From an uncultured Nitrososphaerota archaeon (GTDB lineage: Archaea > Thermoproteota > EX4484-205 > JAAOZP01): DNA of 64,000 nt. Both the position numbers and the translations under genes were made by a program. The notes below the pieces were generated by a model. The model worked only from the letters and a program-made list of their open reading frames with translations. It searched no databases and was not told the DNA's origin. Of this stretch, positions 3,307-54,658 are shown one piece after another; the first letter of the stretch is position 1; each line of letters opens with the position of its first letter. The stretch spans positions 25,217-89,216 of the forward strand of contig CAYQCW010000007.1 in NCBI GenBank assembly GCA_964416155.1, read 5' to 3'.

Positions 3307-3639
3307 TTAAGGGTGTTTCTCCAAGTATTGCAGGAGACTAGCCTGCCCCGCGGGGCTACGTGAAAGCTTCGCCGCCAGAGTGTAGAATCTTCTCGCCAGA
3401 GAGATTCTCGTAGCCCTGTGTTGATCCCCGTCTAGGCCAAGCTCTTCCTGTAGGAAGGAGTGTAGAAGCTGCTGGACCGCGACGCCTTCGCTCCTCCTGG
3501 TTTCAACGTATTTCAGGAAGGCTTTGAAAAGCGTTTTCGAGCATTCCCTCATCCTCCTGACGTTCTCCTCCGCCTGGAGCCTGAGCTCCCCGTAGGTTTC
3601 AGCGACGCGTCTAACGTCTTCATGCAGATTCCCACTCAA
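3307..3639 (-). CDS. Hypothetical helical protein
   Basis: 110-aa ORF, no recognisable motif. Confidence 0.3.
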   Translation of the reverse strand: MSGNLHEDVRRVAETYGELRLQAEENVRRMRECSKTLFKAFLKYVETRRSEGVAVQQLLHSFLQEELGLDGDQHRATRISLARRFYTLAAKLSRSPAGQASLLQYLEKHP

Positions 3640-3695
3640 GCCTGTTTAGAATGTTTTTAAAACTGTTTTAAGCCCCAACCGGCGCGCCGGGTTTT

Positions 3696-4322: not shown

Positions 4323-4384
4323 CCAGCTCGGGTGGAAAATAAGCTTTTATAGAAAAGCCTCCCGCGTAAGCCCAACGCTGAGCG

Positions 4385-5467: not shown

Positions 5468-5478
5468 GGTTTATCAAT

Positions 5479-6033: not shown

Positions 6034-6077
6034 AAACGGGAGTGTTTATAAACATCCTTTTCGAGAGGGTTTGAAGC

Positions 6078-6806
6078 ATGGAGCCCGGTTCACTGGTGCT
6101 CGTCGACTACACTCTCTCCGTGAAGGAGACTGGCAGCGTGATAGAGACCACTATAGAAGAGGAGGCTAAGAAAGCGTCTATACACAGGGAGGGTGAGAAG
6201 TACTCTCCCCGGCTGATATACCTGGGTGGAAAATGGGTTTTGGAAAGCTGGGAGGAGGAGCTTCTCAAGAGCGAGATCGGCGTCGAGAGGACTGTTGAAA
6301 TACCTCCTGAAAAAGCCTATGGCTTCAGGGATCTGAGCAAGGTTAAGACGTATGCCGCCAGAAGGTTCTCCAAGCCCCAGGAGCTTGCCCCCGGGGCTCT
6401 GGTTGAAATGGATAACAGGATCGGCGTTGTGAGAACTGTTAGCGGCGGCAGGGTTCAGGTTGACTTCAACCCGCCTCTTGCGGGCAGAACCCTAGTCTAC
6501 AGGTTTAAAATACTTAGGGTTCTCGAGGATGATGCTGAGAAGATTAAGCATCTCGTGAACAGGCGTCTCCCCGAGGTTACGGTCGACGAGGTTGCTGTGG
6601 AGCTTGACGGAGCCAGAGCTGCGATAAGACTCCCCCAGAGGGTTCTCCTTTCAGAGGGGATTCAATACGTTAAGAAGGCTGTTTCAGAAGACGTTTTAAC
6701 CATTGTTAAGAACTTTAAGACCGTTGAGTTCATAGATGTTTTCACGCAGCCCGAGGCCGCGGCAACCGGGGAGGCTCAGCCTACTCCTCAACAATCTCAG
6801 CCTTAA
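6078..6806 (+). CDS. FKBP-type peptidyl-prolyl cis-trans isomerase (long archaeal type)
   Basis: N-terminal FKBP fold motifs (LVLVDYTLSVKETGSVIETT...) with inserted flap and C-terminal extension. Confidence 0.8.
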   Translation: MEPGSLVLVDYTLSVKETGSVIETTIEEEAKKASIHREGEKYSPRLIYLGGKWVLESWEEELLKSEIGVERTVEIPPEKAYGFRDLSKVKTYAARRFSKPQELAPGALVEMDNRIGVVRTVSGGRVQVDFNPPLAGRTLVYRFKILRVLEDDAEKIKHLVNRRLPEVTVDEVAVELDGARAAIRLPQRVLLSEGIQYVKKAVSEDVLTIVKNFKTVEFIDVFTQPEAAATGEAQPTPQQSQP

Positions 6807-7218
6807 TCAGGATTAGCTTCTTCACAGGGCAGTCGAACGCTCCAAGCTTCTCAAGAATCCTGATTCTCCGGTTTGAAACAAGCATGTTGAAGACCACGGG
6901 GCATTCAAGGACCCTGCTGCACCCGGCGCGGCAGAAGCTGTTTTCAAGAATCGTGACAGCACCCTCCTTCACCCTGTCTTGTGCGAGAAGGGTCAGCGGT
7001 TCCATGCTGATTTCAAACGGCGCGGCCTCGCCGCCTCTCAACGGGCAGTAAACCTTCTCGCCACCCGTCTTCCTAACAATCCTGTACGAGAAGCCTGTGG
7101 TTAGCGAGCCGTGGCACCTCTCCCTGGCGCCGCACGATTCACACTCGCATGCTTCACCCATGTAGGTGAAGACTAGGCCCTTTTTCGCAGAAGGGTCCAG
7201 GTAGCTGTACTTGCCCAA
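6781..7218 (-). CDS. Cys-rich conserved hypothetical protein
   Basis: 145 aa with CECESCGARERCHG and further Cys pairs. Confidence 0.35.
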   Translation of the reverse strand: MGKYSYLDPSAKKGLVFTYMGEACECESCGARERCHGSLTTGFSYRIVRKTGGEKVYCPLRGGEAAPFEISMEPLTLLAQDRVKEGAVTILENSFCRAGCSRVLECPVVFNMLVSNRRIRILEKLGAFDCPVKKLILIKAEIVEE

Positions 7219-7231
7219 GGCTGGACACCGG

Positions 7232-8302
7232 CTATATCACCATCGTGCTTCTGGCAAGCTCCTCCGCAGCCTTCCTCGTCAAACCCTTATCTCCAAGTAT
7301 AGTGTATCTTTCAGGCCTTATGGTGTGGGCGAGGATCAGGGCTTTAACAACCTGTTTCTCAGAAACGTTTATCACCCTAGCTGAAACGGGTGCGCCGACT
7401 TTCGAAAGCGCGCTCCTTATTCTCAACCAGTCGCCGTCGTGAAGCTTGCTCATCATTATTGTCCCTATTCCAACCTGCTCCCCGTGGAGAGCAGGATAGC
7501 CTGCAACATGGTCGAGCGCGTGGCTGAAAAGATGCTCGGAGCCGCTGCACGGCCTGCTGCTTCCAGCTATGCCTATGAGCACCCCGGCGTGTATCAACGC
7601 TTCCACGAGTATGCTGGCCCCCTCAAGCCTGTCCCCCGCGATGGTTTCAGCACACTTAACTATTCTCTCCGCGATTGTTTCAGCTAGGCTCGCTGCATAC
7701 TCGCCGTAGTATTCTCCGCGAAGCGTGTGGGAGAGACGCCAGTCTTTCACAGCCGTATGCTTCGCCACCAGGTCTCCAACCCCGGCGCCGAAATACCTCG
7801 AGGGAGCTGTTGCGAGAATCGAAACATCCCCTATTATTACTGAGGGCGTTATCGTGTTGAACGAGTATCTTCTTCCCCGCCTGGGCGCTGAGGCCAGGGG
7901 GCTTGCAATCCCGTCGTGAGAAGGCACCGTGGGGACGCTTATGAACTCCAGGCTGTTCCTCCAGGCTAGAATCTTGCCCGCGTCAATAACCCTGCCTCCT
8001 CCGAAGCCGACGACAACGCTTTCACCCGGCTTCCTGTCAATCTTGGCGAGATGCTTCTCAAGCTTCAAGGACTCTGTGAAAGCATCCGCCTCGCCTATGA
8101 GGCTGAGCCTGAAGGAGAGCCTGCTCTCCAAGAGGATTCTCCTAATCTTCTCCCCGAAGAGCCTCATAGGCGTCTTGCTGGTTAAAACAACGACCCTTTT
8201 AGCCCCCAGCTCCCTTATGCTTGAGCCCAGCTCCTCAACAGCATCCCTTCCGAGTATTATGTGTCTCGGCAGCCTAACTGTATGCCTACTCTTGTCTTTC
8301 AA
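7232..8302 (-). CDS. egsA: Glycerol-1-phosphate dehydrogenase [NAD(P)+]
   Basis: 356 aa. GFGGGRVIDAGK Rossmann motif and PTVPSHDGIASP metal-binding region typical of archaeal G1PDH. Confidence 0.9.
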   Translation of the reverse strand: MKDKSRHTVRLPRHIILGRDAVEELGSSIRELGAKRVVVLTSKTPMRLFGEKIRRILLESRLSFRLSLIGEADAFTESLKLEKHLAKIDRKPGESVVVGFGGGRVIDAGKILAWRNSLEFISVPTVPSHDGIASPLASAPRRGRRYSFNTITPSVIIGDVSILATAPSRYFGAGVGDLVAKHTAVKDWRLSHTLRGEYYGEYAASLAETIAERIVKCAETIAGDRLEGASILVEALIHAGVLIGIAGSSRPCSGSEHLFSHALDHVAGYPALHGEQVGIGTIMMSKLHDGDWLRIRSALSKVGAPVSARVINVSEKQVVKALILAHTIRPERYTILGDKGLTRKAAEELARSTMVI

Positions 8303-8373
8303 GGTGTTGAGACGAATAGGGGAAAGATTTATCTTTAAGCCTTTCCCTACTTGGGACGGTTCGGGTTCTAGAG

Positions 8374-9045
8374 GTGTTTAGAAGGTTGGCAAGCATTAAT
8401 ATGAGAACAGGCAGAACGGGGATAGTCGACCCTCTCTGGGGCACTACTACGGTTGGAATATCCTGCACGGACGGCGTTGTCCTGGCTTCAGACACTAGGG
8501 TTGTTCAAGGATACTATTTTATCGCTCATAAACGCGGAAAGAAGATTCTGAAGATAGATGACTATATTGCTGCAACTATTTCCGGCGGAGTTGCCGACGC
8601 GCAGGCCCTCATAAGCTCGCTGCAGTGGGAGGCGAGGTCGTACAAGCTTGAGAGAGGGGTCAACATGCCTGTTAAGGCGGCTGCGAACATTGCTTCAATA
8701 ATCCTCTCGTCGACGCGCATTGCACCCCTCTACATTCAGCTGATAATAGGCGGCTACGATAGAGAGGGGACCAGCCTATATGTGCTGGACCCGCTCGGAG
8801 GCTTTTCGAAAGAGGTTTTCGTAGGATCAGGGTCAGGCTCCCCTGTTGCACTAGGATACCTTGAGGCTGAGCTCAAGCCCCCGGTTAGCGTTGAGAACGC
8901 TATACCAATCGCGATTAAATCTATTCTCGCAGCAATGCAGAGGGACACTGCCACCGGCAACGATTTTGAAGTCATGGTTGTCGACTCGAAAGGGTGCAGG
9001 GAGCTATCGCCCGAGGAGAAGACAAGGTTGACCGGTTTAAGATGA
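8374..9045 (+). CDS. psmB: Proteasome beta subunit (paralog 2, canonical)
   Basis: Propeptide then G|TTTVGI catalytic Thr1, SGGVADAQ, GSGS motifs. Confidence 0.85.
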   Translation: MFRRLASINMRTGRTGIVDPLWGTTTVGISCTDGVVLASDTRVVQGYYFIAHKRGKKILKIDDYIAATISGGVADAQALISSLQWEARSYKLERGVNMPVKAAANIASIILSSTRIAPLYIQLIIGGYDREGTSLYVLDPLGGFSKEVFVGSGSGSPVALGYLEAELKPPVSVENAIPIAIKSILAAMQRDTATGNDFEVMVVDSKGCRELSPEEKTRLTGLR

Positions 9046-10943
9046 GCGCAGAGAAAGACATAAGGGAAGTAATCTTCGAGAAAATACCTAGAGAGGCCCA
9101 GATAGTCGGCATAGAGATGGAGGGGCCTGCGATAGCCGTCTACGTTGAGAACCCGGGCTTCCTGGTGAGTGGGCAGCAGGTTCTGGCGGAGGTTGCTAAG
9201 CAGCTTAGGAAAAGGATTGTCGTAAGGACGGCTGTTAAAGCGAGGAAGCCGAAAGACGAGGCTGAGAAAACCATCAAGCAGCTGGTTCCCAAGAAGGCCG
9301 GCGTGGAGGCTGTTGTTTTCAACGATGTTTTCGGCGAGGTTCTGGTTTCAGTCAGACATCCGGATGCCGTCGAGGAGCTCGGGGAGAAGATTCTTAACGA
9401 TATTATGGTTGAAACAGGCTGGAAGCCAAGCATCATAAGAATACCCCCGCTCAGCACAACAGTCATACCGCAGGTCATGTATGTTTTCAACCAGAACGCT
9501 GAGGAGAGGTTCAGGATTCTCAGGGAGATCGGTGAAAGAATATTCAGGAAACCCTTGTTTAAGACTGAAAACATTACTCTAACTTTTCTAGGAGGCGCTG
9601 AGCAGGTTGGGAGGTCCAGCATTCTTGTTTCAACAGATGAGAGTAATGTTCTCATGGATTTCGGGATAAACCCTGCTGCAAGCTCCTATTCTGATTCTTT
9701 CCCAAGGATCGACAGGATACCGATCTCCGTTGAAAACATAGATGCTGTCGTGGTTTCCCACGCTCACCTGGACCACATGGGCGGGCTTCCCCTGCTCTTC
9801 AAATACGGATACCATGGCCCAGTCTACATGACTGAGCCCACAGTATACTTGATGTTCCTACTGCTCAACGACCTTTACGATGTTCTTCAGAAGAATGGCG
9901 TCACACCCTTCTTCGAGCTTAAGGATCTCAGGACTATTCTGCAGCACACGATTCCGGTGAAGTTCGGCGTGGTTGTCGACGTCGCCCCGGATATTAAGCT
10001 GACCTTCAGGAACGCTGGCCACATATTGGGCTCCGCGATAATTCATCTTCACATCGGCGAAGGGCTTCACAACATTGTCTTCACGGGAGACTTGAAGTAC
10101 GACCGCTCCATACTGCTCGAGCATGCTTCAACAATGTTTCCCAGGGTTGAGACGCTGATAACGGAGTGCACCTACGGCGGTGTGAACGACACGATGCCCC
10201 CTAGGGAGGAGGTTGAGAACAGGCTTGTCTCCCTTGTTAACTCTACGCTGGAGAAGAATGGGAATGTTCTCATCCCTACGCTCGCCGTGGGGAGAGCCCA
10301 AGAAATAATGCTTGTCCTAGACAACGCTATAAGGAGCAAGAAGATCCCCGAGGTGCCAATATATGTGGACGGCATGATCTCGGAGGTAACTGCGATACAC
10401 GCCTCATTCCCAAACTATCTATCCAAGGATCTCAGGGAGACGATGAACAACGGTGTCAATCCGTTTAAATCCGAATACGTGATCCCGGTTAAAAACTCGA
10501 TTCCAAGAGAGGAAATAACGGAGGCAAGGCGCAACATAATCCTTTCCCCCTCAGGAATGCTTGAAGGAGGCCCGGTGATAGAGTATTTTAAGCTGATCGC
10601 CCCGCAGGAGAACTCCATGGTGATATTCGTAAACTACCAGATAGAGGGGACTCTTGGAAACAGGGTTTTAAACGGGCTTAAGGAGCTTACGATGCAGAAC
10701 GCTAACGGCAGGGTTGAAGCAATAACCATAAAAAGCGCTGTGGAGAGAGTTGACGGTTTCTCAGGCCACTCCGACAGGAACCAGATACTGAACTACGTTA
10801 GGAGGGTCTACACTAAAAGGGGTCCCCTGTTTCTAGTCCACGGGGAGGCTAAGAAGATCCAGAACATGAAGAAGCTTTTAAACAGGACGTATGGGGAGAA
10901 CGTTTACTCGCCCAGGCTTCTTGAAACCTACAGGGCTCTTTAA
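9043..10943 (+). CDS. Archaeal CPSF1-type beta-CASP ribonuclease (KH domains + metallo-beta-lactamase)
   Basis: VVVSHAHLDHMGGLP His motif, beta-CASP C-terminal blocks, N-terminal KH region. Start taken at MSAEKD because the upstream extension overlaps the proteasome gene. Confidence 0.85.
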
Positions 10944-11040
10944 ACAGTTCTTCGCTAATCATGCTTTCAAGCCTGGGGCCTGTTCCCCACCTTTTGGCTG
11001 GAAAAGTATTTATTTAAGCTTCCCGCGGAATCCTTGAGAA

Positions 11041-11289
11041 TTGTCCGCGGATACTACGATGGAGCTGCTTCAAGCATCCCTGGGTAAGAGCATAATAGTG
11101 AAGCTCAGGGGAGGGGCGAAGATACGTGGAATCCTAGACGGGTATGATCCTCATCTGAACATCGTTCTTTCCAGCGCTGAGGAGCTCAAGGGGAACGAGA
11201 CGACTAGGCTTGGACTGATCGTGATAAGGGGGGACAACGTTATCCTGATCTCCCCCCCGATAGAGTATAAGCCTGAGGGGAAGGAGTAG
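11041..11289 (+). CDS. Sm-like archaeal protein (LSm)
   Basis: Sm1/Sm2 fold (IIVKLRGGAKIRGILDGYDPHLNIVL...RGDNVILI). Confidence 0.8.
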   Translation: MSADTTMELLQASLGKSIIVKLRGGAKIRGILDGYDPHLNIVLSSAEELKGNETTRLGLIVIRGDNVILISPPIEYKPEGKE

Positions 11290-11295
11290 AGGGAA

Positions 11296-11496
11296 ATGGG
11301 CAAGACCTCGGCGGGGACAACGGCCTTCGGAAGACTCCATAAGAAGTCAACTCACAAGATATGCAGGAGATGTGGAAGAAGGTCTTTCAACATTAGGAAG
11401 AAGTATTGCGCGGCATGCGGCTTCGGCAGGAGCCCGAGGATAAGAAGATACTCTTGGCAGAACAAGAAGCTGCAGAGGATCGTGAGAGTTGTCTAG
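11296..11496 (+). CDS. rpl37e: Ribosomal protein L37e
   Basis: C4 zinc ribbon [20 protein letters not shown], 66 aa. Confidence 0.85.
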
Positions 11497-11499
11497 GAT

Positions 11500-12138
11500 T
11501 TGACTGTTGATTTAAATAGTAGGATAAGCCTCCTCATCAAAGAGTCTTACGAGTATTTGAAGAGGCAGGAGGACGTTAAGTACGACCTGCTGAGAAGCAT
11601 AAGCAGCATTGTGAAGAAGTGTAGAAGCTCCGTTAAAGCATCCTACGCGCACGATTTCAAGGCTTCGAGAAGAATACTGGACGGCGTGCAGCAAGACATA
11701 GCGAGGCTCGTTAAGACTGCTTACCGGGAGGGAGTCTGGGAAACATGGCCACCAATAGTGCAGACATACCAGGAGTTTCTCGAGGCGGTTCTAGTATACT
11801 GGTTCACATCCGGCAGGGAGTATAGGCTAAGGGTTAAGCCTCCACCGGCTTCAATACTCTACGCTATCTCAGACTTTATAGGAGAGTTGAAGAGACTCAT
11901 GCTCGAGCATCTTAGGAGGGGTGAGTTGAGGGAGGCTGAGGAAACCTACAGGATTATGGGTCAGCTTTATGAGAACGTTTCAACGATCGCGCTCGGAGAC
12001 TCGGCGCTGCCCGGCTTCAAGAGGAAGATAGATGTTAACAGGTCTTCGGTGGAGTCTGCCTTCTCGATTCTGAACGAGGAGCTCCGTAGAAGAGCATTCC
12101 TGTCGTCAATGGAAGAATACTTTGAGAAGCTCCGCTGA
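11500..12138 (+). CDS. Translin-family all-helical protein (tentative)
   Basis: 212 aa. YQEFLEAVLVYWFTSG and ISDFIGELKRLMLE resemble translin core helices. Assignment from memory, not searched. Confidence 0.4.
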   Translation: MTVDLNSRISLLIKESYEYLKRQEDVKYDLLRSISSIVKKCRSSVKASYAHDFKASRRILDGVQQDIARLVKTAYREGVWETWPPIVQTYQEFLEAVLVYWFTSGREYRLRVKPPPASILYAISDFIGELKRLMLEHLRRGELREAEETYRIMGQLYENVSTIALGDSALPGFKRKIDVNRSSVESAFSILNEELRRRAFLSSMEEYFEKLR

Positions 12139-12784
12139 CACGCTTGAAACATGGGAGGGCCTGAAACTGGATCAGGCTCTTTACGAGAGGCTTTGCGAAA
12201 CCCAGAGACTCATCTCTAAAAGGGTTGTTGTCTCAGAAGAGCATTGTGAAAGGGTTGAAAAGGTTGCTGGCGTCGACGCTTCCTACTGTGGAGACTCAGC
12301 CTTCGTAGGCTTCACGGTTTTCAGCATCCCGGAGAACAGGATAATCCTTGTAAGCGTTTCGACGGCCCGTTCAAGAATGCCTTATTTTTCCTCGCTCCTA
12401 TGCTTCAGAGAGGGGCCGGTTATCCTACCTATTCTTAGAAGGTTTCTTACTGAGTATGACGTGCTTCTGGTTAACGGCCATGGGCTCGCCCACCCGAGGA
12501 AATGCGGCTTAGCCACATACCTTGGAGTACTGCTTAACAAGCCCACCATAGGGGTTGCTAGAAAACCCTTGGGGAGGCTTGACGAGGAGCATAACGTTAA
12601 CCATTTAAGAGAGTTCGGAGACAGGTTTTACTACAGCGTGGGAAACATGATGACTCTTGAAGGAGCGTTCAACGTGCTTAGGAGGATCACCCTGAAGAAC
12701 AGGGGCCTCCCAATACCTCTTGAGACAGCACACTCGTTCTCGAGAAAAACGTTAACGCTGGTGGCTGGTGATGAAAGAGTATAG
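12122..12784 (+). CDS. nfi: Endonuclease V
   Basis: VAGVDASY catalytic-Asp block, GHGLAHPRKCGLATYLGV motif. Confidence 0.85.
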   Translation: MRSSADTLETWEGLKLDQALYERLCETQRLISKRVVVSEEHCERVEKVAGVDASYCGDSAFVGFTVFSIPENRIILVSVSTARSRMPYFSSLLCFREGPVILPILRRFLTEYDVLLVNGHGLAHPRKCGLATYLGVLLNKPTIGVARKPLGRLDEEHNVNHLREFGDRFYYSVGNMMTLEGAFNVLRRITLKNRGLPIPLETAHSFSRKTLTLVAGDERV

Positions 12785-14129: not shown

Positions 14130-14257
14130 GGGCCCGTAGCTCAGACGAGAAAAGTTTAAATATGTCTTGAAGCGTGTGCCACGCGCGGCTCGGAGCAGCA
14201 TGGTAGAGCAGCAGGCTCTTAACCTGAGGGTCGAGGGTTCAAATCCCTCCGGGCCCG
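14130..14257 (+). tRNA. tRNA-Lys (anticodon CUU) with a ~53-nt non-canonical intron in the D-arm region
   Basis: Hand fold: acceptor GGGCCCG/CGGGCCC, D-arm GCTC..AGCATGGTAGAGC, anticodon loop CTCTTAA, T-arm GAGGGTTCAAATCCCTC. The 128-nt span means ~53 nt of insert after the 5' GCTCAG. 27-43 is a G.A mismatch, so the anticodon-stem register is tentative. Confidence 0.6.
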
Positions 14258-14463: not shown

Positions 14464-15096
14464 ATGGTGACTTGTCCTTTAACACTTTTCTCAGGTTTTC
14501 ATGTAATTCTTTCGGGTCTGACTGCGCGAGTTTCTCGAATCATGATGATTTTACGTCTAGCGCACGCTATGGGGTTCGTTTCCTTCGCGATGCCCGCCAG
14601 GGAGCTCTTTGAGGACAATGTTCTGGGCGACCTCTTGCCCAGCACCCTGATGAGTCTGAAATACTTTTCTAAGAAGACTAAAACGGATTTCGAGCTGCTA
14701 ATCTATGGCATTGGCCATAGGCTTAAGTACAGGGGAATAAATAGCTATAGCAATCTCTCATGGTTCCTAGAGGCCAAACACGGATGCTATTTTAAGGATG
14801 GCTGGTCGTACGACCTTAGAGATCCTGAAATCAGGTTTGAAGAATGTGATTGCGAGGTCTGCAAAGGGTTAATGCCCCAGGAAATTATTGACCTGATGTT
14901 CAGCGACAAGGAGCTCGGTCAAGACGCTTATCCTCCACAACCTGCTCGACATGAAGGGGGCTTTATCGAGGAGGAAATAGATGGGTGGAGGTTCGAGGGT
15001 AAAGCAGTACCAGAGAAGGTTCTTCGAGGGGGAGCAGGGAAGGGAAGAAAAGGAGGAAGAAGCCTTCCATGTTGTAAGGACCTTCGGAGAGTATGA
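14464..15096 (+). CDS. Hypothetical protein with CxCxxC-x30-H zinc motif (TGT-like zinc site), in AT-rich island
   Basis: ECDCEVCKGL ... PARH. Low-complexity C-terminus overlaps another frame. Likely decayed. Confidence 0.3.
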   Translation: MVTCPLTLFSGFHVILSGLTARVSRIMMILRLAHAMGFVSFAMPARELFEDNVLGDLLPSTLMSLKYFSKKTKTDFELLIYGIGHRLKYRGINSYSNLSWFLEAKHGCYFKDGWSYDLRDPEIRFEECDCEVCKGLMPQEIIDLMFSDKELGQDAYPPQPARHEGGFIEEEIDGWRFEGKAVPEKVLRGGAGKGRKGGRSLPCCKDLRRV

Positions 15097-38737: not shown

Positions 38738-39108
38738 GGGGGCTAGGCCCGATGGAAACGTATTTATGATGCCTCTCACAATCTTTTCCTGGGCGGCAGG
38801 TAGGCTCGGGGAGCTCGCCATTCCCTGAACCCGAAACTGGCGACACGCGGGGAGCCGATAACCGTGGGGACAGGGCTGCCTCAACGCAACCGGCTGCAAC
38901 AGGTCTGTGAAAGCCATCCTTACTGGGCAGGAGTAGCAGGCTCGCCTGCCGTAGGGTGGGCGCGTCTGCCTAATTACCGAATCCGCTAGGCCCGGGAGGG
39001 AGCAACGGTCTGGTAAGCTACCTGCGTTGGTAAGGGATGGCTGGAGGGTAAACCTGTTGCGTGTGGGTTGTGATGGAGGGGCTCGACCCTCATGGGGCTG
39101 CCGCCTCT
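38738..39108 (+). ncRNA. Signal recognition particle RNA (7S/SRP RNA)
   Basis: GC-rich ~370-nt noncoding stretch with the helix-8 (domain IV) signature AGGCCCGGGAGGGAGCAACGG, comparable to conserved AGGUCCGGAAGGAAGCAGCC, and Alu-domain-like GGCGGCAGGTAGGCTCGGGG. A T-rich tract follows. End coordinates approximate. Confidence 0.65.
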
Positions 39109-39203: not shown

Positions 39204-41264
39204 ATGATAAAAGTTCTATCAAAGGAACGGTTTCTGAGATGCGACGAGAAAGGGCGGCCGGTGGTTCCAGGCTTTGTGACATACGTCTCAAGGAACAAAC
39301 AGATTCTTCTTCACCGTTTCGGGAGAGAGGATTACTCAGATACTTATGATGATTATATGGACATGTTCAGCTATGATAATGACAGAACATGGACGCAGCC
39401 GGTTCTGCACCTGAAAAGTGTGGATGTCAAGGGGGCAAAATCCGTTACGGCGAGCAAGCAGCTCTTTTCGACTCAGAAACAGAGAAAATTATAGTGGTTA
39501 TTAACAAGTCTTTCTACCCTAACGATACGCTTGACACGGACCTTCCCTACTCCCTAGTCCAAGAAATGTACGACCCGGCAGCAAACACATGGTCCGACTT
39601 AACCCGTTTGGATTTAGATTTTCCTGGCGAAATTGCTGTGAGCTTCTGCAATCCAATAAAAAATATCGAGGGGGCGATTAGTATTCCCCGCGCAGGGCAC
39701 ATACCTTGATGAAAAAGGGCAGCCTGTCCACTATAAGGGTTGCTGGTCGCCAGCAGGCATCATCGTTCATCTCTTAGGAGACTATGGGAAAGACGAGACG
39801 ATTAGGTGGAAACTGAGTAAACCGGTTATCCCTGATTTAGAGAAGACTTCTCGCGGTTTCTACGAACCGGCTGTCGCGGAACTAAAGGACGGGCGTTTCG
39901 CTATGGTTTTGCAGGAGGACAACAGCATGTTTCCCGAGCGCCCAAGGTATAAGTGGATAAGTTTTTCGGATGACCATTGCGAGACCTAGACCGAGCCGGT
40001 GCCCTTACCCTGCGATGGGAACAAGCCCATTGAATCCAGTTCCACTGGCTCTATGCTTTTTCGCTCCATTAAAAACGGCCGGCTCTATTGGATTGGAAAC
40101 TTGTGTATTGAAGGTGCATGGATCTTTGGCGTGTATTGCGAGAAGACTCTGCGTCCTTACGGCAATTTTCCGAGGACACCTCTGGTCATAGCAGAGGTTC
40201 AAGAAAATCCTTTTTCCTTGAAACGCAACACCATAACCGTGATTGACAGGCAGCAGCCTTATGAGCCTCCACAGGTGCAGCTCTCCAACTTTAGGTTTTA
40301 CCAAGACCGTGAGAACAGTGATATCGTCCTTTTCCTAACCCGTTGCAGTGAACGCGCCGCCGAAGCCTGGAAGCTGGCGGATTATTACCGGTATCGGATT
40401 GCCATTTGAAATGGAGGAGACATGTAAATGACACGAAATTGTATCTAAGTAGGCTCCCGCAAACAGGTTTTCCTAGACGAGCGCTTCATAGTGTAGTCGA
40501 AGGGGATAAGGGCGAAAGTTAACCCGCCCTTGGAGCGGCATGAAGTATTGCGGGGAGACCGTCCCTAGGACAGGGGCTGGATCGGCTGGTTGACCGTGTT
40601 AGAGGACGGAGGAGTCTACAAGATGTGGTATATAGCTGCTCCCGAGAGCACTGGAGAAGAAATAGATGGCGGAAAGGCCCTTAGACTCTGCTACGCGGTC
40701 TCCGAGGATGGAGTTAATTGGAGGAAGCCTGAACTCGGGCTCGTGGAGTATGAAGGAAGCAGGAGAAACAACATAGTGCGCATAGAAGGATTCCCAGGCG
40801 GAAGCCCGGAGGGCTCAGTGTTCCTAGACCCGAAGGCTCCTCCTGAACAAAGGTATAAGATGCTTGGTACGCTTTCCCCAGTGTCTACCGCCACTTTCCC
40901 GAGCCTCCGCTGGGCCCTTGTGTGAACGATGGCCTGCTGGAGATTCAGTTGGCCGTGAGCCGTGACGGTGTCCGGTTTCAGCGGCCCGACCGCACCCCCT
41001 ATATTCCGCTTGACGTGAAAGGTACGTGGCACGCCGGCCAGATGTACATGGGGGGTAGGCATGATCAGGAGGGGAAACAGACTTTTCCAATATTATAATG
41101 CTTCAGACATCAGCCATAGTGGATACCGGTGCCCCAAGCCCTTGCCCATTGTGGACATAAGCCGCGTCTTTGTGGCGGTGCAGCTTCTCGACCGTTTCGC
41201 AGGTATCCAGGCCCCGGATGAGGGTTGGCTGCTCACCCCGCCTCTGCGCTTTTCAGGGAACTAG
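39204..41264 (+). pseudogene. BNR/Asp-box beta-propeller glycosidase-like gene, decayed by frameshifts and in-frame stops
   Basis: Asp-box motifs SYDNDRTWTQP and SEDGVNWRKP. Coding signal hops between frames (39204..39494 frame 0, 39389..39709 frame 2, then frame 0 with stops near 39986, 40407, 40923). Confidence 0.6.
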
Positions 41265-41824
41265 TTAGAGTTAAACATAGACTGTGGCGCCACAGGTGAA
41301 GCACTGGTTGAAATAGATGATGAGAATGGGGTTCCGATTCAGGGCTTTAGTCTAGACGAGAGCGACCGGGTGTGGGGAAATCACCTGAGGAAGAAGGCGT
41401 CGTGGAGAAATGGGAAGACAGAGCAGATTTCCCAGATTTCCCCCTTCTGTCAAGACGGGTGCGAACCTGAAGAGATAGTTCAAGGAGCCGATCTTTATAT
41501 CTAAAATATACGTGTTTTTGGATTGTGTAAGATTAAATATCTAACCTTACCCTTACCTTGTGTAATTCTTTAGCGCGCGCTACTCGCTTTCCTAAGCCTA
41601 GAGGATTGGCTTAAGCCTGAGGAGGTTGGGAGGCTAGCTGGGAAGCTGGGCGTTGATCCTAAGATCCTGTTCCTGAGTTTTTCAGACGCTTTGGCCGACG
41701 AGATCGCAAGGAGGTTTTGAGATGAGCGATAAGCCTATTTGGAGCGCGCACGCGCTTCCTGCTCTTCGTCGAGAGAGTTAACCGGCTTAATGATGGAGGA
41801 ACATTAATTTATTAGAACGCCCTG

Positions 41825-41912
41825 GCCGGGATATTCGGTTTTTAACTTTCGAACCCGGGTCGGGAGGGTGACAGCCTCCAATGCTAACCTTTACACCACC
41901 AGGGCTCGGGTG
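41825..41912 (-). tRNA. tRNA-Asp (anticodon GUC) with a 16-nt non-canonical intron in the T-loop
   Basis: Acceptor GCCCTGG/CCAGGGC. Anticodon arm GGAGG CTGTCAC CCTCC. T-arm CCGGG TTCGAAA[GTTAAAAACCGAATAT]CCCGG. 88 nt. Not flagged by any ORF. Confidence 0.6.
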
Positions 41913-42106
41913 TAGGAGTTTTTGAGGGCAAATAAATCTTTTGCTACAGTTACGCTTGAGCCTTATTTGTCAGATAGTAGTGATGAACCCTGAGCCAGGG
42001 AAGTACATAAGTAGAGTTTCTTACCCATACTGGAACAAGTGCAGGGTCTTAATTTCGAGGAGAAGAGCATTTCATAGATTTCTACTGTGAACGCAAAATT
42101 CTGATA

Positions 42107-42265
42107 ATGGAGCTGGCAGTTGAGAAAATAAACGAATTGATTAAAAACACTGGATACCAATATTACAAAATAGACTTATTTCTCATTGCTTCGAGTATGC
42201 AATATTATATCGTGTTCATACCCACTGAAGTTGAGAAGCTTGAAAAGGAAAGAAGTTGGAAGCTT
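42107..42265 (+). CDS. Small ORF 'Y' (52 aa), paralog of 52269..52454
   Basis: MELAVEKINELIKNTGYQYYKI... versus ...VNRINELIKDAGYQYYRL at the second locus. Confidence 0.3.
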
Positions 42266-42384
42266 TAATTGATGATCTAGTTGACAAAATAAGGTGCTAT
42301 TCCTCACCTTACCTGTAATTTGAATTAGGCTCTATTTCTTTATAGAGCTTAATCCCAGTGCAGGTATAACCGGATTCTGTTTGC

Positions 42385-42570
42385 TCAATCCGAATTTGTA
42401 CCACTACTACGATACCATACTTCACATTCCAGCCTATTAAAATAATCTTCCACTTGCCTTATCTCATTACCTATACGACCAGTAATATCTCGAAACACCG
42501 TTCCCTTTATTTCAACTATCGCCATCAATTTATCTTCAGAGTAAACTTGGATGGCTGGTCCTTGTTTCAT
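42385..42570 (-). CDS. Small ORF 'X' C-terminal module with hhAIhEIKxT motif, paralog of 52451..52783
   Basis: YSEDKLMAIVEIKGT...VEDYF versus YHKSELVAIIEIKTT...LKDYF. Upstream minus-strand coding remnants are also homologous between the loci. Confidence 0.35.
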   Translation of the reverse strand: MKQGPAIQVYSEDKLMAIVEIKGTVFRDITGRIGNEIRQVEDYFNRLECEVWYRSSGTNSD

Positions 42571-42952
42571 GCATCCGCTGGTTTTTAAGCCCCTCCTTCG
42601 GAAGCCCAGTCAGCCTGGATATTTCTTCCTTAATATTATCAATATTTAAGAATACTTATTCTTCATCAACCTTCTCAATTAACTCTTTAATTTCTTCCTC
42701 CTCCTTTAACATTTCCATGTTAAGCTTATCCACAATCTCCTGAGCCAGCCTTTTAACGATAGTCCCTGAATCCTCGAGGTATATTCTATGGGCAAGAGGC
42801 CCTTATTTTTATCGTGCGCTACATATTTGCTTAACGCTTTCCACATCCCCTTTAAAGGTTAGAGTAAACACTTAGGAGAAAGTTGTGAAAGTGATTATTG
42901 GGCACAATAACGAAGGGCCCCGATTTTTCGCGTTCCTCCTATTCAACTCCTT

Positions 42953-44240: not shown

Positions 44241-44933
44241 TTGGGAAGGATTGATATCAATCAACACGGACGGATAATTGAGCGGGCGATTATAGTGACA
44301 TTGTTGATAGCGATTCCAGTGTTAATAAGCGTCACGCAAACCACTGCCCAAGGCGTTAGGTACTATGCAGGATACTATTTTTACGGTTATGAGGGTGCTT
44401 CACCTCCTTATGGAGTATCCGGCAGAATATATACCGTTAATAAGAACGTGCCCACGGGTCATTTCTACGCGCAGTGGCCTACTGTCATACTCAGTTATGT
44501 CTACGGGTTTCGGGTTCAGGTAGGCTATACTAAAGGTTGGGATACCAACTATCAGTTGACATGGTACGCGGAGAAGAATGACTGGAACGGTTGGGAAATT
44601 CGCTGGACTGGCACCCCGAGCGCTGGGGCCACGTACAATTATTGGATAGAGAGATATGAGAATAGCGGCGTCTGGGTCGGCGGGGTCTCTGGCTATTGGA
44701 TGTGGGACTTCGGGACACTTAACCCCAACGTGGCGGTGGATTACCAAGCATTCAGCGAAACCACAACCACTGGAATAAATATCGATGGAACGCACTTCAG
44801 TAACCTATGCATCCTTAGCTACAATGGGATCGACTGGATCCCTTGGTACAGGCATGTTCCCAAGGAGGCTCGTCCTTATTACTGGCTTACACAAGTCTCC
44901 GATTGTGAGTTTTACGCTTGGGGTGGTGGCTGA
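44241..44933 (+). CDS. Secreted Trp/Tyr/Gly-rich protein (TTG start)
   Basis: N-terminal TM/signal (IVTLLIAIPVLISV), then an aromatic-rich probable beta-sandwich. Very AT-rich upstream region. Confidence 0.45.
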   Translation: MGRIDINQHGRIIERAIIVTLLIAIPVLISVTQTTAQGVRYYAGYYFYGYEGASPPYGVSGRIYTVNKNVPTGHFYAQWPTVILSYVYGFRVQVGYTKGWDTNYQLTWYAEKNDWNGWEIRWTGTPSAGATYNYWIERYENSGVWVGGVSGYWMWDFGTLNPNVAVDYQAFSETTTTGINIDGTHFSNLCILSYNGIDWIPWYRHVPKEARPYYWLTQVSDCEFYAWGGG

Positions 44934-45553
44934 TGGCTCGGGTTGGAAGTATGCTCCTTATAGTGCTTTTGGCAGTCATGGCTATGGGTGTAATCGTAGG
45001 GAACTACATTGTGCCCAAGCAATACGCGAACATGACCCCAGATTCTACTGCGTATGAAGCTTCCCCAAGAGGCCCCGCACCCTTCCCTGGTGAGATTGTT
45101 CCCCTGGATACTGTGGTCAGCCAGCTGGCCAATAAGGGGTTTACGCTCCACCTGCCCACGAAGATGATGAGGGGAATGAAGCTCACAGCCGTGTGGGCTA
45201 AGGTTCTCGATGGGCAGGTTAGCTTCCCCATAATAGTAGTCTACAGCAACACTGGGGACAAAGCCATCGAGACGGCGGAAATCGGAATAGAAATAGCACC
45301 CATGCCTGAAATTCCCTTCCATGTGACCAATAGCTCAACCGACAGATTCGATAGGGTGGGCGAGTGGATGGCATTCGTCTCCAGCAGAGCACCAATGGGT
45401 TATAGAGAATATTATCTGAAGTATGGCACGGAGTACGCATATCTTGTAGATATAAAGATCGGCTCCTTGAACTATCTCTTCAGGTTCGCACCCGTCTTGA
45501 CAGAGGAGGAGATCATGGAAATCTGTCAAAGCATGAGGCCCATGGTGCCATAG
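44918..45553 (+). CDS. N-terminally membrane-anchored protein, co-operonic with 44241..44933
   Basis: Start overlaps the upstream gene's end; TM SMLLIVLLAVMAMGVIVG. Confidence 0.45.
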   Translation: MGWWLMARVGSMLLIVLLAVMAMGVIVGNYIVPKQYANMTPDSTAYEASPRGPAPFPGEIVPLDTVVSQLANKGFTLHLPTKMMRGMKLTAVWAKVLDGQVSFPIIVVYSNTGDKAIETAEIGIEIAPMPEIPFHVTNSSTDRFDRVGEWMAFVSSRAPMGYREYYLKYGTEYAYLVDIKIGSLNYLFRFAPVLTEEEIMEICQSMRPMVP

Positions 45554-51335: not shown

Positions 51336-51480
51336 GGACCCGTAGCTCAAATTTAAGTACTAGATTCGCGTGATGGCGTGAGTCTAGTACTTGAAGAGCA
51401 GCCTGGTTAGAGCGCTGGGCTTTTAACCCAGAGCCGCGCGCGGCGGGTAAATGTTGCGGGTTCAATTCCCGCCGGGTCCG
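51336..51480 (+). tRNA. tRNA-Lys (anticodon UUU) with two non-canonical introns (D-loop ~50 nt; variable-loop ~19 nt)
   Basis: Acceptor GGACCCG/CGGGTCC. D-arm GCTC[...intron...]AGCCTGGTTAGAGC. Anticodon arm CTGGG CTTTTAA CCCAG. GC-rich insert CCGCGCGCGGCGGGTAAAT before T-arm GCGGGTTCAATTCCCGC. Confidence 0.75.
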
Positions 51481-51534
51481 TTACTTATAACGTTCAGAAA
51501 AATTTAATAGCTGGCTTAAAGATGAAGGAGACAA

Positions 51535-51634
51535 GGGCCAGTGGCCCAGCCTGGTTAAGGCGCCCGGCTGATAATAGATGAATATAAATCTATTTGAAAC
51601 CGGGAGATCGCCGGTTCGAATCCGGCCTGGCCCA
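51535..51634 (+). tRNA. tRNA-Ile (anticodon GAU) with 25-nt canonical intron
   Basis: Acceptor GGGCCAG/CTGGCCC. Anticodon arm CCCGG CTGATA[25 nt]A CCGGG. T-arm GCCGGTTCGAATCCGGC. Confidence 0.8.
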
Positions 51635-52268
51635 CTTTTAGTGAATGTGTAAACGCGTATCTCATTCTTTTCCGCGCCATGGTGTTCGCAATCTTCAATA
51701 ATGAGATTAGAAGGCGATTATGCTTAAAGCTGTGCTTCACGAGTATTAGTAGGATGGTGAACCCTAAGCTTAGGAAGAGGCTTGTGGATTCGATAGAGTA
51801 TCTTCGTAAAATGGGTTTCTTCCAAAACTACTCCGACTTGTCCTCCGAGGAGATTCTTAAGAAGATTTGAACGGCGAGATAGAATATTCTATGCTGTCGG
51901 TTGATGAGAAGGATGAGAGGAGTTTTTAAAAAAGGCGGAGGAGGAGAGAGAAAGGGGAAACTTGGGGCCAGCGTCTAAAAAAGTGGATTGAAAAGGATGA
52001 GGATCAGTGGATGAAGAAGAGCGATTTCGGAGTAGATTTAGAGCTGAGCTTTTTCGATAGGAGGAGGATTTTCGCTGAAGATGTAGAGACTATGATTTAT
52101 GAAGGCATGGTGGTCGTGTTGTTGAAGAAACTAGCTAGGATTTCAAGAGGCGTTTTCCAGCCGACGAATATGAGGGAGAAGAAGTGGGTCCAATGGCATG
52201 GGAAGGCTCCTCAAGACGATGGAATACATTTCAAAATTCCTTAACTATGATTATAGGACTAGGATCGG

Positions 52269-52454
52269 GTGTGCTTCGAGTTCAGGAGAGAGGAGCATGT
52301 CGTCGATTTTTACTGTAGAGGTGATTTTCTGAATATAGAACTCGTGGTAAATAGGATAAACGAGCTTATTAAGGATGCTGGATATCAATACTACCGGCTT
52401 CAGGAGACTACTTCTGTTTCGCTGTTCTCACTCGGGATGAAGCTGAGAAGCTAA
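52269..52454 (+). CDS. Small ORF 'Y' paralog (61 aa)
   Basis: ...VNRINELIKDAGYQYYRL... Convergent with the X remnant and overlapping it by 4 nt. Confidence 0.3.
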   Translation: MCFEFRREEHVVDFYCRGDFLNIELVVNRINELIKDAGYQYYRLQETTSVSLFSLGMKLRS

Positions 52455-53733
52455 TGAAGGAAAGGGGCTGGAGATTTATAAAGGTGTATTAGTTTGCAGG
52501 TTCTGTTATGGTTTAGGTTTAACACTGCATCACCGGGAATAGGTTCAATACCTTCCAAGAATTCCGACGTTATGATTTTGTCCAAATCCCTAAGTGCAAT
52601 GACTAATGGAAGCCCGTACTTGGCCTTTATGAAGTAATCTTTCAACTGCTTTACTGCCCCATCCATCTGCCTCGCTACATTTATTCTTGTGGTTTTAATC
52701 TCGATTATCGCAACCAGTTCACTTTTATGATACATGTGAAAACCAGGCCCTAGCTTAAATGGTCCCATTATTTTCGAGCTCATTCTCCAGAATATCTAGG
52801 AACTCGGACACCTTCCTTTTAATTTCATCTTTCAAGTAAAGTTTAACGTATCACTGACCAATGTCCCCCTCAAAGTTAGGGTCTTCGCGTTCTTCGCCAA
52901 AGATCTTTTTCAAATCCTCAACCATTTTCGTTAAAATTGTCTTCGGGTTTTCCAGGAATATCTAATGGTCGGATGTGGTTTCGCCCTCTCCTCTGTAATA
53001 CTCTACCGTGAGTTTGCTTTTCTCCTCATCGTATTTCACGCTTTTAATCCGTCTAAATTGGCTGACCATCAATTTGCATAAATATTCCTTGGATTCCTTG
53101 TGCACCAGCTTGATTAAGTGCTCTTTACCTCGTAATCCTTTATCGAGAAGATGACTGTGGACCCATAATCCCCCGTCTTATCGTAACGTGGGTCCTCCTT
53201 CAAGAGGATTTCGCAAATATCATTTCCACCTACAATCAGCATGTATTTCCCTAAGCTGAACGTGGTGTCGAACGGTGCGTTCGCCTCCCTGAGGACTGTT
53301 TTGACAAACTCGTAGGTGGCGATCCTAGTTACAGTTACCTTAACTTCCTCACCATCCTCGCCTATATCGTTTGGAATGTCGAATTCAAACGTTGATCCAT
53401 AACCTTTGAAAAGGTCCTTTCCTTCACCTTAATTTTTACCCAACATGGTTCATCTCCCAAGTATGATTTGAGCAGTTCCCTAGATATCCGAATCCTTAAA
53501 TTATGCTTAATATGCTGCTTCAAAACGCTTTTCACCATTAAGCCGTCAGGATGGTTGATTATCCTGCTAAGCGCACGTACAACCGGTGCGACGAAGATTC
53601 CAAGCGGGCTGTAGGTTAATGCTTCGGTAACGCTACCCGTTTGAGCGTAGACTATGAGGGCGCTTGCTGTGCCAACCGCTAAGCCTGCTATAGTGATGTG
53701 TGAGACCGTGAAGGATAGGCCTGCTATCGCCAC
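52451..53733 (-). pseudogene. Decayed member of a multi-copy gene family (hydrophobic N-terminus, central domain, C-terminal hhAIhEIKxT module), fragmented across three frames
   Basis: Manual three-frame read of the minus strand gives consecutive pieces MAIAGLSF...KIKVKE / GYGSTFEFDIPNDIGEDGEEVKVTV...KDYEVKST / LIKLVHKESKEY... / IFLENPKTILTKMVEDLKKIF... / YVKLYLKDEIKRKVSEFLDILENE then MSSKIMGPF...ELVAIIEIKTT... separated by frameshifts or stops. Confidence 0.4.
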
Positions 53734-54658
53734 GGGTATCGGGGTTCCGGTCGTCCCCGCAAACGTAGACCGCTGCCGAGAGGCCCTCTAGTATCGTTAC
53801 CGTTGCAATGGTTGTTTTAGTGTCGCTATAAGTCCCTTGGCCGGCTCGCGTCGATACGGAGGTAGCCTGTTCCACCGTACCATGTTCTCTTGTCGACGAT
53901 GTAGGTTATCGCTACAGTGTTCCTATTCAGGTTGTTCCAAGAATAGGATGAGGGGGCTGCGGAAGCGTGGGTTCTGTTGAACGAAGTGGCTAAATCAGGC
54001 AGGAGGAGAAGCGTAAAGGAGGCTGAGAAGAACAGTGTTAAAAACAGGCGTCTCCAGGCACGCCCGCCCATGAATGGGAAACGCGGGGGCTTAAGATAGA
54101 GCTTTCCAGCTTGCCCTGCCCACGATGCTGAGGCTGTCCTCACAGCACGCGCTAGACCAGCCCTGTTGAAGCGTTCAAAGTATAGGGTAGCGCACGATCC
54201 TAAAACCGCTCTACACCGTTTATCCCTCACTGTCGTATGGATCAAAGTGGTTTTCTTGAGCCATTAGGCCTCATGAGGAGGGCTAACTCCCCATAGTTAA
54301 CTTGAAGGCCTGCTCCTTAATCACGGTTTTGCCCCGAGCTCTACGACGAGGCCTTTCAAATAAAGCATTTATATTACCAGCTTATTTTCCGCCTGAAGAC
54401 GGTTTAAAAAGGTTTAAGCCTCAGATTAACTCTGACAAGTCATGTTTTCCTACAAATACCTTATCCTCATAGGCTGAAGAGTAAGCCTTCCGCCAGAAGA
54501 AAAACTTTATCTTGAGACGCTTGACGCTTTAAAAACAATTGATTAGGGCGGTGGAGGCGTTCAGAACCCTAGGAGGAGTTTACGATAAACGTGAGAAAAC
54601 CCTAGTGCAACCCAGGGTTCTCCATACTGTTTAGAGCTCGGAAGGAGGCTGGTTTAAA

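Follow-up and report, generated by a model that had tools for sequence, protein, structure and literature searches.

Two decayed loci in an archaeal genome fragment are remnants of X–Y, a convergent gene pair with a predicted C-terminal nuclease module

Within a stretch of 64,000 nucleotides from the genome of an uncultured Nitrososphaerota archaeon (contig CAYQCW010000007.1; the whole stretch is called the window here), two loci, A and B, are pseudogenes that decayed independently of each other; both are remnants of a single module of two genes, which we name X–Y. In other genomes, gene X encodes a long protein that ends in a predicted nuclease module, and gene Y encodes a partner of 210-250 aa that usually lies on the opposite strand and converges on X. 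Neither locus A nor locus B is able to make a functional protein; the loci themselves are genomic debris, ordinary pseudogenes, and their value is that they point to the parent family. This gene pair is absent from every curated library examined, is confined to Brockarchaeota-like hot-spring archaea, is represented by as many as about ten diverged copies in a genome, and appears to evolve by cassette exchange. Taken as a whole, the observations are probably best explained by two dead X–Y remnants in the window and a parent pair that may have been a conflict module.

Results

Two degraded copies of one gene pair

When locus A was compared with the rest of the window in six frames, locus B was the sole match, and it matched on both strands, in agreement with the sequence-only reading of this DNA, which had described the two loci as diverged and decayed paralogues that belong to one family. 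The plus-strand stretch 42053-42172 aligns with 52281-52400 (60% identity over 40 aa), with a second segment at 47% over 19 aa (joint E 1.6e-11), and on the minus strand 42633-42439 aligns with 52822-52631 (32% over 65 aa, E = 2e-5). The nucleotide identity is 69% over 107 nt (E = 3e-6). The two small plus-strand open reading frames (ORFs) are present, at 42107-42268 (53 aa) and 52269-52454 (61 aa). Likewise, the minus-strand motif Y-x-E/K...AIhEIK...DYF occurs in both copies, and the coding sequence upstream of it is homologous and broken across frames in both, as had been proposed. There are indeed two loci, with other limits than those first given: the homologous sequence, which on both strands matches proteins of other archaeal genomes, extends over 41989-42796 in locus A (not 42107-42950) and over 51754-53739 in locus B (not 52.2-53.7 kb).

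The partner of X had been taken to be the small ORF itself, and this had to be abandoned. Plus-strand conservation begins at 41989/42053, upstream of the ATG at 42107, with a stop codon preceding it in locus A, and since conservation starts upstream of that ATG, the 53-aa ORF is not the unit of conservation. In all three of the first source contigs, a gene of 211-244 aa converges on the 3' end of X, and the convergent proteins align over their whole length to the plus strand of locus B and only by their last 70-100 residues to that of locus A. Because convergent proteins of 210-250 aa align to the plus strand of the window, the small partner ORF is read as the C-terminal stump of Y, with 70-100 codons left in locus A and a frameshifted copy of full length in locus B.

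In locus A, only the last ~98 codons of the ~250-codon Y gene are left (remnant Y'), with one frameshift near 42060. Residues 156-184 of Y253, an intact Y of the collinear contig JAVZMD010000012 (L008; a hot-spring metagenome-assembled genome, MAG, labelled Thermoproteota archaeon), correspond to 41989-42075 (59%) and residues 179-253 to 42053-42277 (75%; tblastn, E = 2.5e-34), and the 53-aa ORF starts at an internal Met of Y'. The remnant of X (X') comprises its last 166 codons, that is, the end of a beta-rich core and the PD-(D/E)xK module, distributed over three frames; it contains two frameshifts and an internal stop, and its catalytic Asp is replaced by Ala (GPAIQV). The positional orthologue of this locus, P0056, matches X' with residues 434-504, 497-552, and 555-599 at 68%, 64%, and 89% (frames 1, 0, and 2; joint E = 5.5e-57), and is thus 64-89% identical over its last 166 residues.

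In locus B, Y has its full gene length but is interrupted by two or more frameshifts (~51868 and ~52400) and by two or more regions with in-frame stops. Its residues 1-38 match at 82% and residues 40-213 at 44% with internal stops, while the tail lies in a third frame (E = 1e-50); the match takes in ORFs 51679-51870 and 52011-52244, and the 61-aa ORF is one surviving frame. The X remnant contains three frameshifts, in-frame TAG and TGA stops, and several short deletions; Gly (GPGFHM) takes the place of its catalytic Asp, and Gln, with a stop after it, that of its helix-1 Glu. Over 58 aa, the surviving part of the transmembrane cluster of X (53739-53566) shares 71% identity with residues 914-970 of a frame of 1992 codons in another genome (L025), and the next match to that frame starts near residue 1622, the junction being in frame and fusing the transmembrane piece to the core and the PD-(D/E)xK module. 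Since the match jumps from residue 970 to ~1622, ~650 codons were deleted inside this copy of X. A search of 53.74-54.65 kb, upstream of locus B, for the N-terminal region of X (~900 residues) gave no match.

The window copies of X do not qualify as active nucleases, with the Asp lost and with frameshifts and stops within or beside the module. Sequencing error was considered as the source of the broken frames and rejected. The housekeeping genes around the loci (HD, TFIIE, Trm56, DUF655, TGS, SpoU, L16, PCNA, and primase) are intact and full-length relative to L008, so that the frame breaks reflect local pseudogenisation and not poor sequence.

Distribution of the family and linkage of X and Y

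Intact copies exist elsewhere, as had been anticipated. The frameshift-corrected minus-strand translation of locus B retrieved three proteins of 204-523 aa with 43-51% identity, and intact X (P0001, P0002, P0053, and P0056) and 49 Y proteins were found in other genomes. At the genomic level, Y was located at 54 loci in about 15 species-representative genomes, and every genome with the pair is a hot-spring MAG of Brockarchaeota-like or unclassified Thermoproteota type. There are up to 9-10 copies per genome, with mutual identities of 26-65%. When the X core profile was run with HMMER against the full set of 1.84 billion cluster representatives, only 67 clusters matched, many of them short fragments. 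Scans of the window fragments and of intact X and Y against Pfam, NCBIfam, PHROG, and PADLOC gave no family for either protein, in line with the expectation of an undescribed family.

X and Y stay linked in these genomes, which supports the proposal of a two-component module. The X core lies beyond the Y stop, on the opposite strand, in about 38 of the 54 loci, and the stop-to-stop distances are mostly within +/-25 bp and all within roughly +/-70 bp, the 3' ends of the two genes abutting or overlapping. A distant full-length X (P0081, 1605 aa) is paired with a convergent 448-aa tandem Y-Y fusion, and at L067/L068 the gene for an X-like protein of 1445 aa is followed, 48 bp downstream, by Y on the same strand. 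An intact Y stands beside a 5'-truncated X at many loci (e.g., L010, L012, L017, L018, and L026, and L047-L051 in the tblastn map). Such orphan cassettes of a C-terminal fragment plus partner are also represented at L063, where a 76-aa nuclease fragment has a separate partner, and locus A is of this form in a decayed state.

Two arrangements next to these genes were also recorded. Downstream of P0081 at L063, the 76-aa fragment belongs to a different nuclease-module type and is accompanied by a 245-aa gene; in L064 this gene follows an intact version of that nuclease module co-directionally, and it may represent a second partner family. At L066 (10672-11670, minus strand), a 332-aa ORF consists of a RadA-like part (helix-hairpin-helix and RecA/Rad51) fused C-terminally to a fragment of the X nuclease module. 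It converges on an orphan Y; the equivalent position in L065 is occupied by a 307-aa X fragment, and type I restriction-modification (R-M) and EVE-domain genes are near.

Architecture of X and its nuclease module

The X frame is open for 1992, 1493, and 1432 codons in other genomes, and the called genes encode 1445, 1605, and 2445 aa. Each long X has a hydrophobic N-terminus and a transmembrane cluster in the middle of the protein, and the order along the chain is a signal-peptide-like start, 700-900 beta-rich residues, the cluster of hydrophobic helices, a long helical region, beta-sandwich domains, and a C-terminal module of ~150 residues. In P0081 and in the 1445-aa gene of L067 (g1445), a charged and then hydrophobic signal-like start (by inspection) and 700-900 residues precede the transmembrane cluster, i.e., a candidate export region is present. 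The beta-sandwich domains were modelled by AlphaFold with a predicted local distance difference test (pLDDT) of 85-90. Foldseek comparison of the X model with PDB gave generic beta-sandwich matches to glucuronidases with a template modelling (TM) score of 0.09, and comparison of the X core profile with PDB sequences gave noise only.

The N-terminus of X is of three kinds: the giant membrane form, a 5'-truncated form that begins in the helical region (such as P0053 and P0056), and a Glu-rich form that comes after a gene we call W. The W protein (575-620 aa) is an unusual fusion: its N-terminus is Cys-rich, and it contains a domain resembling TGT (PADLOC TGT, E = 2e-6), which bears a CxCxxC zinc motif, together with a metallophosphoesterase of the calcineurin-like kind (Metallophos_2, E = 8e-5). 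A search for W in the window gave only an unrelated TGT-like paralogue fragment at 14.5 kb.

The C-terminal module was aligned for 34 sequences, taken from the 67 clusters and the fetched loci. The alignment contains GxxGE in helix 1, (G)PD in strand 2, and hhhhE(V/I)K(T/S)T in strand 3, which is the canonical motif order of PD-(D/E)xK nucleases. D60 is invariant, G18 and G21 (of GxxGE) and K76 are conserved at 90% or more, and both Glu are consensus residues (GxIGE...GPDFxVY...LxAIVEVKTT); the predicted secondary structure is helix-strand-strand-strand-helix-strand. When the 34 members were scanned singly against Pfam, the matches were HSDR_N in 9 (best 4.3e-6), PDDEXK_9 in 8, SfsA in 4 (1.8e-5), PDDEXK_1 in 4 (1.9e-5), and HSDR_N_2 and PDDEXK_4 in 3 each, besides SduA_C, Cas4, PDDEXK_2, UPF0102, NERD, NucS_C, TnsA, RE_TdeIII, Tox-REase-9, and PDDEXK_14. 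All of these stayed below the gathering score, which no member reached, and the families matched by most members belong almost entirely to the PD-(D/E)xK clan. Comparison of the module profile with PDB sequences gave noise only.

We therefore assign the module to the PD-(D/E)xK superfamily with good confidence as a prediction from sequence, an assignment that is carried by the motif and the consensus of weak matches because no member reached the gathering score and the AlphaFold model is unreliable in this region. The E...D...ExK residues have been retained even among intact members that differ greatly in sequence, which speaks for an active enzyme. The nuclease guess of the sequence-only reading thus stands for the superfamily, and its more specific part, a small Hjc-like protein, falls away. 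A specific match to Hjc was not found, Hjc not being among the 25 best-represented of the 45 Pfam families matched, and a stand-alone Hjc form of ~130 aa is excluded because the module is the tail of a protein of 560-2445 aa, a giant membrane protein in its long form.

The partner protein Y

The AlphaFold model of Y is very confident (pLDDT 95.7; predicted TM score, pTM, 0.90) and consists of a helical N-terminal half and an alpha/beta C-terminal half. Foldseek searches with this model gave no match in PDB (best E 0.12, whole-model TM score at most 0.25) or in BFVD (best E 0.046), and one sub-domain that is weakly dsRBD/RaiA-like in PDB was the only lead; the Y profile against PDB sequences returned noise only. 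Because a very confident model is combined with the lack of a Foldseek match in these two collections, we regard Y as a candidate new fold. Conservation is highest in the first ~45 residues, D93, D100, and R103 are invariant, and residues ~126-227 are variable. The median pI is 5.35 for Y and 5.2 for the X C-terminal module, values for which charge complementarity is uninformative.

Signs of exchange of the variable 3' halves

P0053 and P0056, which come from different genomes, are 93-100% identical over residues 21-260 and then abruptly 18-53% identical. At the nucleotide level, the 5' part of X is 90% identical between these two loci, the flanks 76-79%, and the 5' end of Y 77%, and the X-3'/Y-3' centre has no detectable similarity. 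A conserved N-terminus is thus joined to a variable C-terminus in the one pair that was analysed in detail. At the HD/tRNA-Lys position of locus B, the Kamchatka MAG Kamch4342-D-MF-045, several contigs of which are 84-90% identical to the window at the nucleotide level, carries a different X/Y sequence type, and a Brockarchaeota MAG carries a truncated Y-X pair.

Among 14 complete pairs, the identity of Y residues 126-227 correlates with that of the X middle and of the nuclease module with Spearman rho of 0.70 and 0.61, respectively, and the corresponding values for Y residues 1-45 are 0.39 and 0.47. This co-variation of X and Y is suggestive only, because the comparisons among the 14 pairs are not independent.

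Proposed function of the parent pair

Considering the long membrane protein, the C-terminal nuclease, the adjacent partner, the recombining variable region, and the orphan cassettes, we place first the reading that the parent X–Y was a polymorphic effector/immunity-like conflict system, which from its sequence features we judge a real possibility that falls somewhat short of being probable. In such a system, X would be displayed in or across the membrane with the predicted nuclease effector at its C-terminus, and the variable C-terminal half of Y would recognise and neutralise the cognate X C-terminus. The convergent layout would set both variable 3' halves side by side between conserved 5' halves, and the latter could act as homology arms for exchange of the whole cassette by recombination. 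Truncated X-3'/Y pairs, as in the window, would be displaced or decaying 'orphan' cassettes. We find more doubtful the full claim that X–Y is an undescribed archaeal polymorphic nuclease-effector/immunity or self/non-self system in which the convergent layout is functional, the 3' halves form one exchangeable cassette, the 5' halves are recombination arms, truncated 3'-3' fragments such as locus A are former silent donors, and Y has a new fold.

Several points weigh against the effector/immunity reading. With the transmembrane cluster in the middle of the protein, the nuclease may be placed in the cytoplasm and not outside the cell, and the subset of X that comes after the TGT-like/metallophosphoesterase gene W has no membrane part, which misfits a delivery model. 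The conserved N-terminus of Y, with its invariant Asp, Asp, and Arg, looks more like that of a protein with a conserved activity or binding partner than like that of a purely specificity-determining immunity protein. In polymorphic toxin systems, the immunity gene is co-directional with and downstream of the toxin gene, whereas X and Y are convergent in nearly all loci and co-directional in L067/L068. The nuclease module itself was modelled with a pLDDT below 50, so its fold rests on motifs and sub-threshold profiles, and only one clean recombination mosaic has been documented. Finally, Y is intact in one frame in only 25 of the 54 loci, roughly half of the loci being broken and the window copies being in this respect typical members, and assembly errors in the MAGs could inflate such pseudogene counts.

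The signal-peptide-like start and the huge beta-rich N-terminal region of X would also suit a surface or envelope protein (adhesin- or S-layer-associated) that evolves fast, is specific to the lineage, and has a non-catalytic PD-(D/E)xK-like domain, Y being an unrelated accessory or assembly factor and the window copies ordinary pseudogenes. The restriction of the family to one lineage, with 67 clusters in 1.84 billion representatives, is consistent with this. So is the L063 locus (598-12722), where P0081 is the last gene of an apparent operon; the other genes encode membrane or surface proteins of 454 and 381 aa, a protein of 407 aa, and a KaiC/RecA-like ATPase of 287 aa, and these could form an assembly apparatus. 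However, E...D...ExK is conserved in very divergent intact members, and the co-variation of X-3' with Y-3' and the many fragment-plus-Y pairs that have been kept would be left unexplained, and we hold this explanation to be distinctly improbable.

Abortive-infection antiviral defence is a further alternative, in which X would be a membrane sensor of virus attachment or envelope stress with a cytoplasmic nuclease, Y its regulator or inhibitor, and the window copies dead. The ~1000 residues that follow the transmembrane cluster and end in the nuclease fit a cytoplasmic effector; the family is multi-copy, fast-evolving, and often lost, like defence genes; and weak matches to SduA_C (Shedu) and HSDR_N occur among the nuclease modules. 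Some copies adjoin type I R-M, EVE, or HEPN-like genes, although these cases, which also speak for the effector/immunity reading, are anecdotal and the surroundings of X–Y loci consist mostly of housekeeping genes, not of defence islands. Besides, neither X nor Y has a PADLOC family, and the cassette mosaic together with the 5'-truncated fragment/partner pairs is more typical of polymorphic toxin loci. We therefore consider defence an unlikely explanation. Two small ORFs beside X–Y were noted in this connection: a 77-aa ORF in L008 (8357-8590, minus strand), with an R-x4-H motif (RDKVIH) read from the sequence, and a 73-aa ORF in L001 (12539-12760, minus strand), with a weak HEPN match in Pfam (E = 8e-4). 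They give hints of a conflict-gene neighbourhood.

Genomic position of the loci

The archaeal origin of the window follows from an archaeal signal recognition particle (SRP) RNA at 38793-39104 and from intron-containing tRNA genes. GC content is ~48% and coding density is normal, except in the gene-poor stretches 39.1-42.9 kb and 51.2-54.6 kb. GC content falls to 38% at 42-43 kb and to 42% at 52-53 kb, compared with roughly 48% elsewhere, and the genes for tRNA-Asp, tRNA-Lys, and tRNA-Ile stand next to the loci, so the description of both as AT-rich, gene-poor, and tRNA-adjacent was accurate. The positions of the remnants and of the associated features are collected in Table 1.

Table 1. Positions of the X–Y remnants, adjoining tRNA genes, and inverted repeat in the window, and of gene W in other contigs
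Feature	Sequence	Position	Strand	Basis
Locus A, Y' remnant	window	41989..42277	+	tblastn with intact Y253 of L008
Locus A, X' remnant	window	42300..42796	-	tblastn with P0056 (599 aa)
Locus B, Y remnant	window	51754..52492	+	tblastn with P0007 and Y253
Locus B, X remnant	window	52451..53739	-	tblastn with P0001; four collinear segments, different frames, E = 6e-97
tRNA-Asp(GTC)	window	41820..41906	-	weak Rfam match 41852-41905 (21 bits, T-arm skipped); reading of sequence
tRNA-Lys(TTT)	window	51387-51480	+	ARAGORN
Second, intron-containing tRNA, anticodon read as GAT (Ile)	window	51535-51634	+	Rfam and reading of sequence
Inverted repeat, left arm	window	41441..41515	.	repeat search of window
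Inverted repeat, right arm	window	45435..45509	.	repeat search of window
Gene W, upstream of Glu-rich X	L006	11015-12877	-	
Gene W, upstream of Glu-rich X	L004	538-2289	+	
Gene W, upstream of Glu-rich X	L001	7380-9107	+	

The tRNA-Asp gene adjoins the truncated 5' end of Y' directly. It has a ~16-nt intron in the T-loop, and its acceptor, D, anticodon (CUGUCAC), and split T-arm were read from the sequence, ARAGORN making no call. The tRNA-Lys and tRNA-Ile genes (51387-51634) lie directly upstream of the Y start of locus B, and a related MAG locus (L036) has the identical order tRNA-Lys(TTT)-Y-X. The tRNA-Lys gene (51339-51480, plus strand) probably begins near 51339 and has a further intron ahead of the part called by ARAGORN; these tRNA genes of the window contain non-canonical or multiple introns, and ARAGORN and Rfam each miss some of them.

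The inverted repeat is 75 nt long and 92% complementary, with a perfect 57-nt core that occurs exactly twice in the window against 0 expected, and it encloses 3.9 kb with tRNA-Asp, locus A, and four ORFs without family matches. Its right arm lies inside ORF 44918-45553, about 100 bp past the 3' end of the eRF1 gene, an ORF with homologues 74-92% identical in L036 and L048; the left arm, a fragment duplicated in inverted orientation, is situated where a decayed ORF ends. The perfectly identical core implies a recent rearrangement or duplication. A search for the repeat at the other X–Y loci found none, and the repeat was rejected as an element boundary, being unique to the window and having one arm inside an unrelated ORF.

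These features bear on the idea that X–Y is selfish and mobile, a cassette resembling a homing nuclease or a transposon that inserts beside tRNA genes, with the window loci as decayed insertions; the sequence-only reading had raised a related possibility, that of a mobile paralogous family. The family is multi-copy, copies occur at different positions between conserved housekeeping genes of related genomes, and the perfect 57-bp inverted repeat encloses locus A. The association with tRNA genes, which had been put forward as a check, was recovered in part: in at least 6 of ~50 loci, and also in locus B, there is a tRNA gene upstream of Y at a distance of no more than ~450 bp. On the other hand, the copies within a genome are 26-65% identical in protein sequence and not near-identical, Pfam scans of the modules found no linked transposase or integrase domain, relatives of Y were absent among 2.9 million viral contigs (IMG/VR), and the repeat is absent from the other loci. 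The position downstream of HD and tRNA-Lys is common to distant relatives, which suggests long residence and not recent insertion. The mobile cassette is the weakest of the alternatives and, in our view, very improbable.

The housekeeping genes of the window are collinear with L008 at 55-89% protein identity, and the differences from that contig concern both loci. The segment 41.99-51.2 kb (locus A, eRF1, AA-kinase, AsnC, NAC, Trm56, and TFIIE, to HD) is inverted relative to L008, and the tRNA-Lys/tRNA-Ile genes and the Y-X module of locus B, between HD and DUF655, are extra in the window. The order HD-Y-X is common to the window and the Brockarchaeota contig L004, and the window arrangement may for this reason be older than that of L008. 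Two other regions of the window appear to be damaged as well. Between 39.2 and 41.5 kb there are overlapping, mutually broken ORFs (e.g., 39999-40409, 40590-40925, and 40922-41264), and those that were scanned against Pfam gave zero matches. One of the ORFs in this region has the motif ...GVYKMWY...SEDGVNWRKPELG..., which may be beta-propeller-glycosidase-like; the region looks like another decayed gene adjoining locus A. The 210-aa ORF at 14464-15096 (plus strand), beside a tRNA gene (14186-14257), matches residues 200-340 of a Cys-rich, TGT-like protein of 361 aa (CxCxxC) at 52% identity; in other genomes, that protein is encoded divergently next to the W-X-Y module. The N-terminal ~200 residues of that protein have no counterpart in the window, and the ORF may be a truncated copy of it.

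Discussion

The polymorphic effector/immunity-like reading can be approached by experiment, as the compact nuclease module and the 230-aa partner are easy to test by co-expression. If functional, a layout in which the two genes converge and their variable halves point towards each other would represent a new organisation of a toxin/immunity cassette.

The nuclease module resembles HSDR_N, PDDEXK_9, SfsA, and PDDEXK_1 in the order of the E...D...ExK residues, in the order of secondary-structure elements, and in the repeated matches over exactly this region. HSDR_N is the N-terminal nuclease domain of the R subunits of type I restriction enzymes. In X, however, the module is fused to a giant membrane protein and not to a helicase or methylase partner.

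Type II toxin-antitoxin genes encode proteins of about 70-150 aa and are co-transcribed in one operon. They share with X–Y two tightly linked genes, a putative nuclease and a putative neutraliser, which are multi-copy and prone to decay. The toxin/antitoxin-like interpretation offered in the sequence-only reading nevertheless does not fit in its classical form, as X has 560-2445 aa, Y has 210-250 aa, and the genes are convergent, which is not the layout of a small operon.

The VARTIG modules of Thermococcales (PMC8416519) are, like X–Y, archaeal, lineage-restricted, and hypervariable, with a large surface protein whose C-terminal part is shuffled by recombination. Their function is thought to be conflict or self/non-self recognition, and the proteins contain Ig domains with a hypervariable C-terminal Ig domain, their genes being followed by co-directed membrane-protein genes (PMC8416519). 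Unlike X–Y, VARTIG has neither a nuclease module nor a Y-like partner, and no sequence relationship was found between the two.

Polymorphic toxin systems have been predicted in archaea (Makarova et al. 2019, as cited in PMC8416519) and not characterised experimentally (PMC8416519). X differs from the toxins of such systems in that it has no recognisable trafficking, pre-toxin, or processing domains, in that its transmembrane cluster stands in the middle of the protein, and in that its effector is always of the PD-(D/E)xK type, in place of a menu of toxin folds; besides, the N-terminal half of Y is strongly conserved. On the other hand, X–Y and polymorphic toxin systems such as CdiA-CT/CdiI and Rhs (PMC8416519) have in common a protein of great length that starts with an export signal and ends in a module of nuclease fold, a dedicated partner gene immediately adjacent, conserved N-terminal parts joined by recombination to sharply divergent C-terminal parts, and dispersed 5'-truncated C-terminal fragments that are accompanied by the partner gene, the 'orphans' of these systems.

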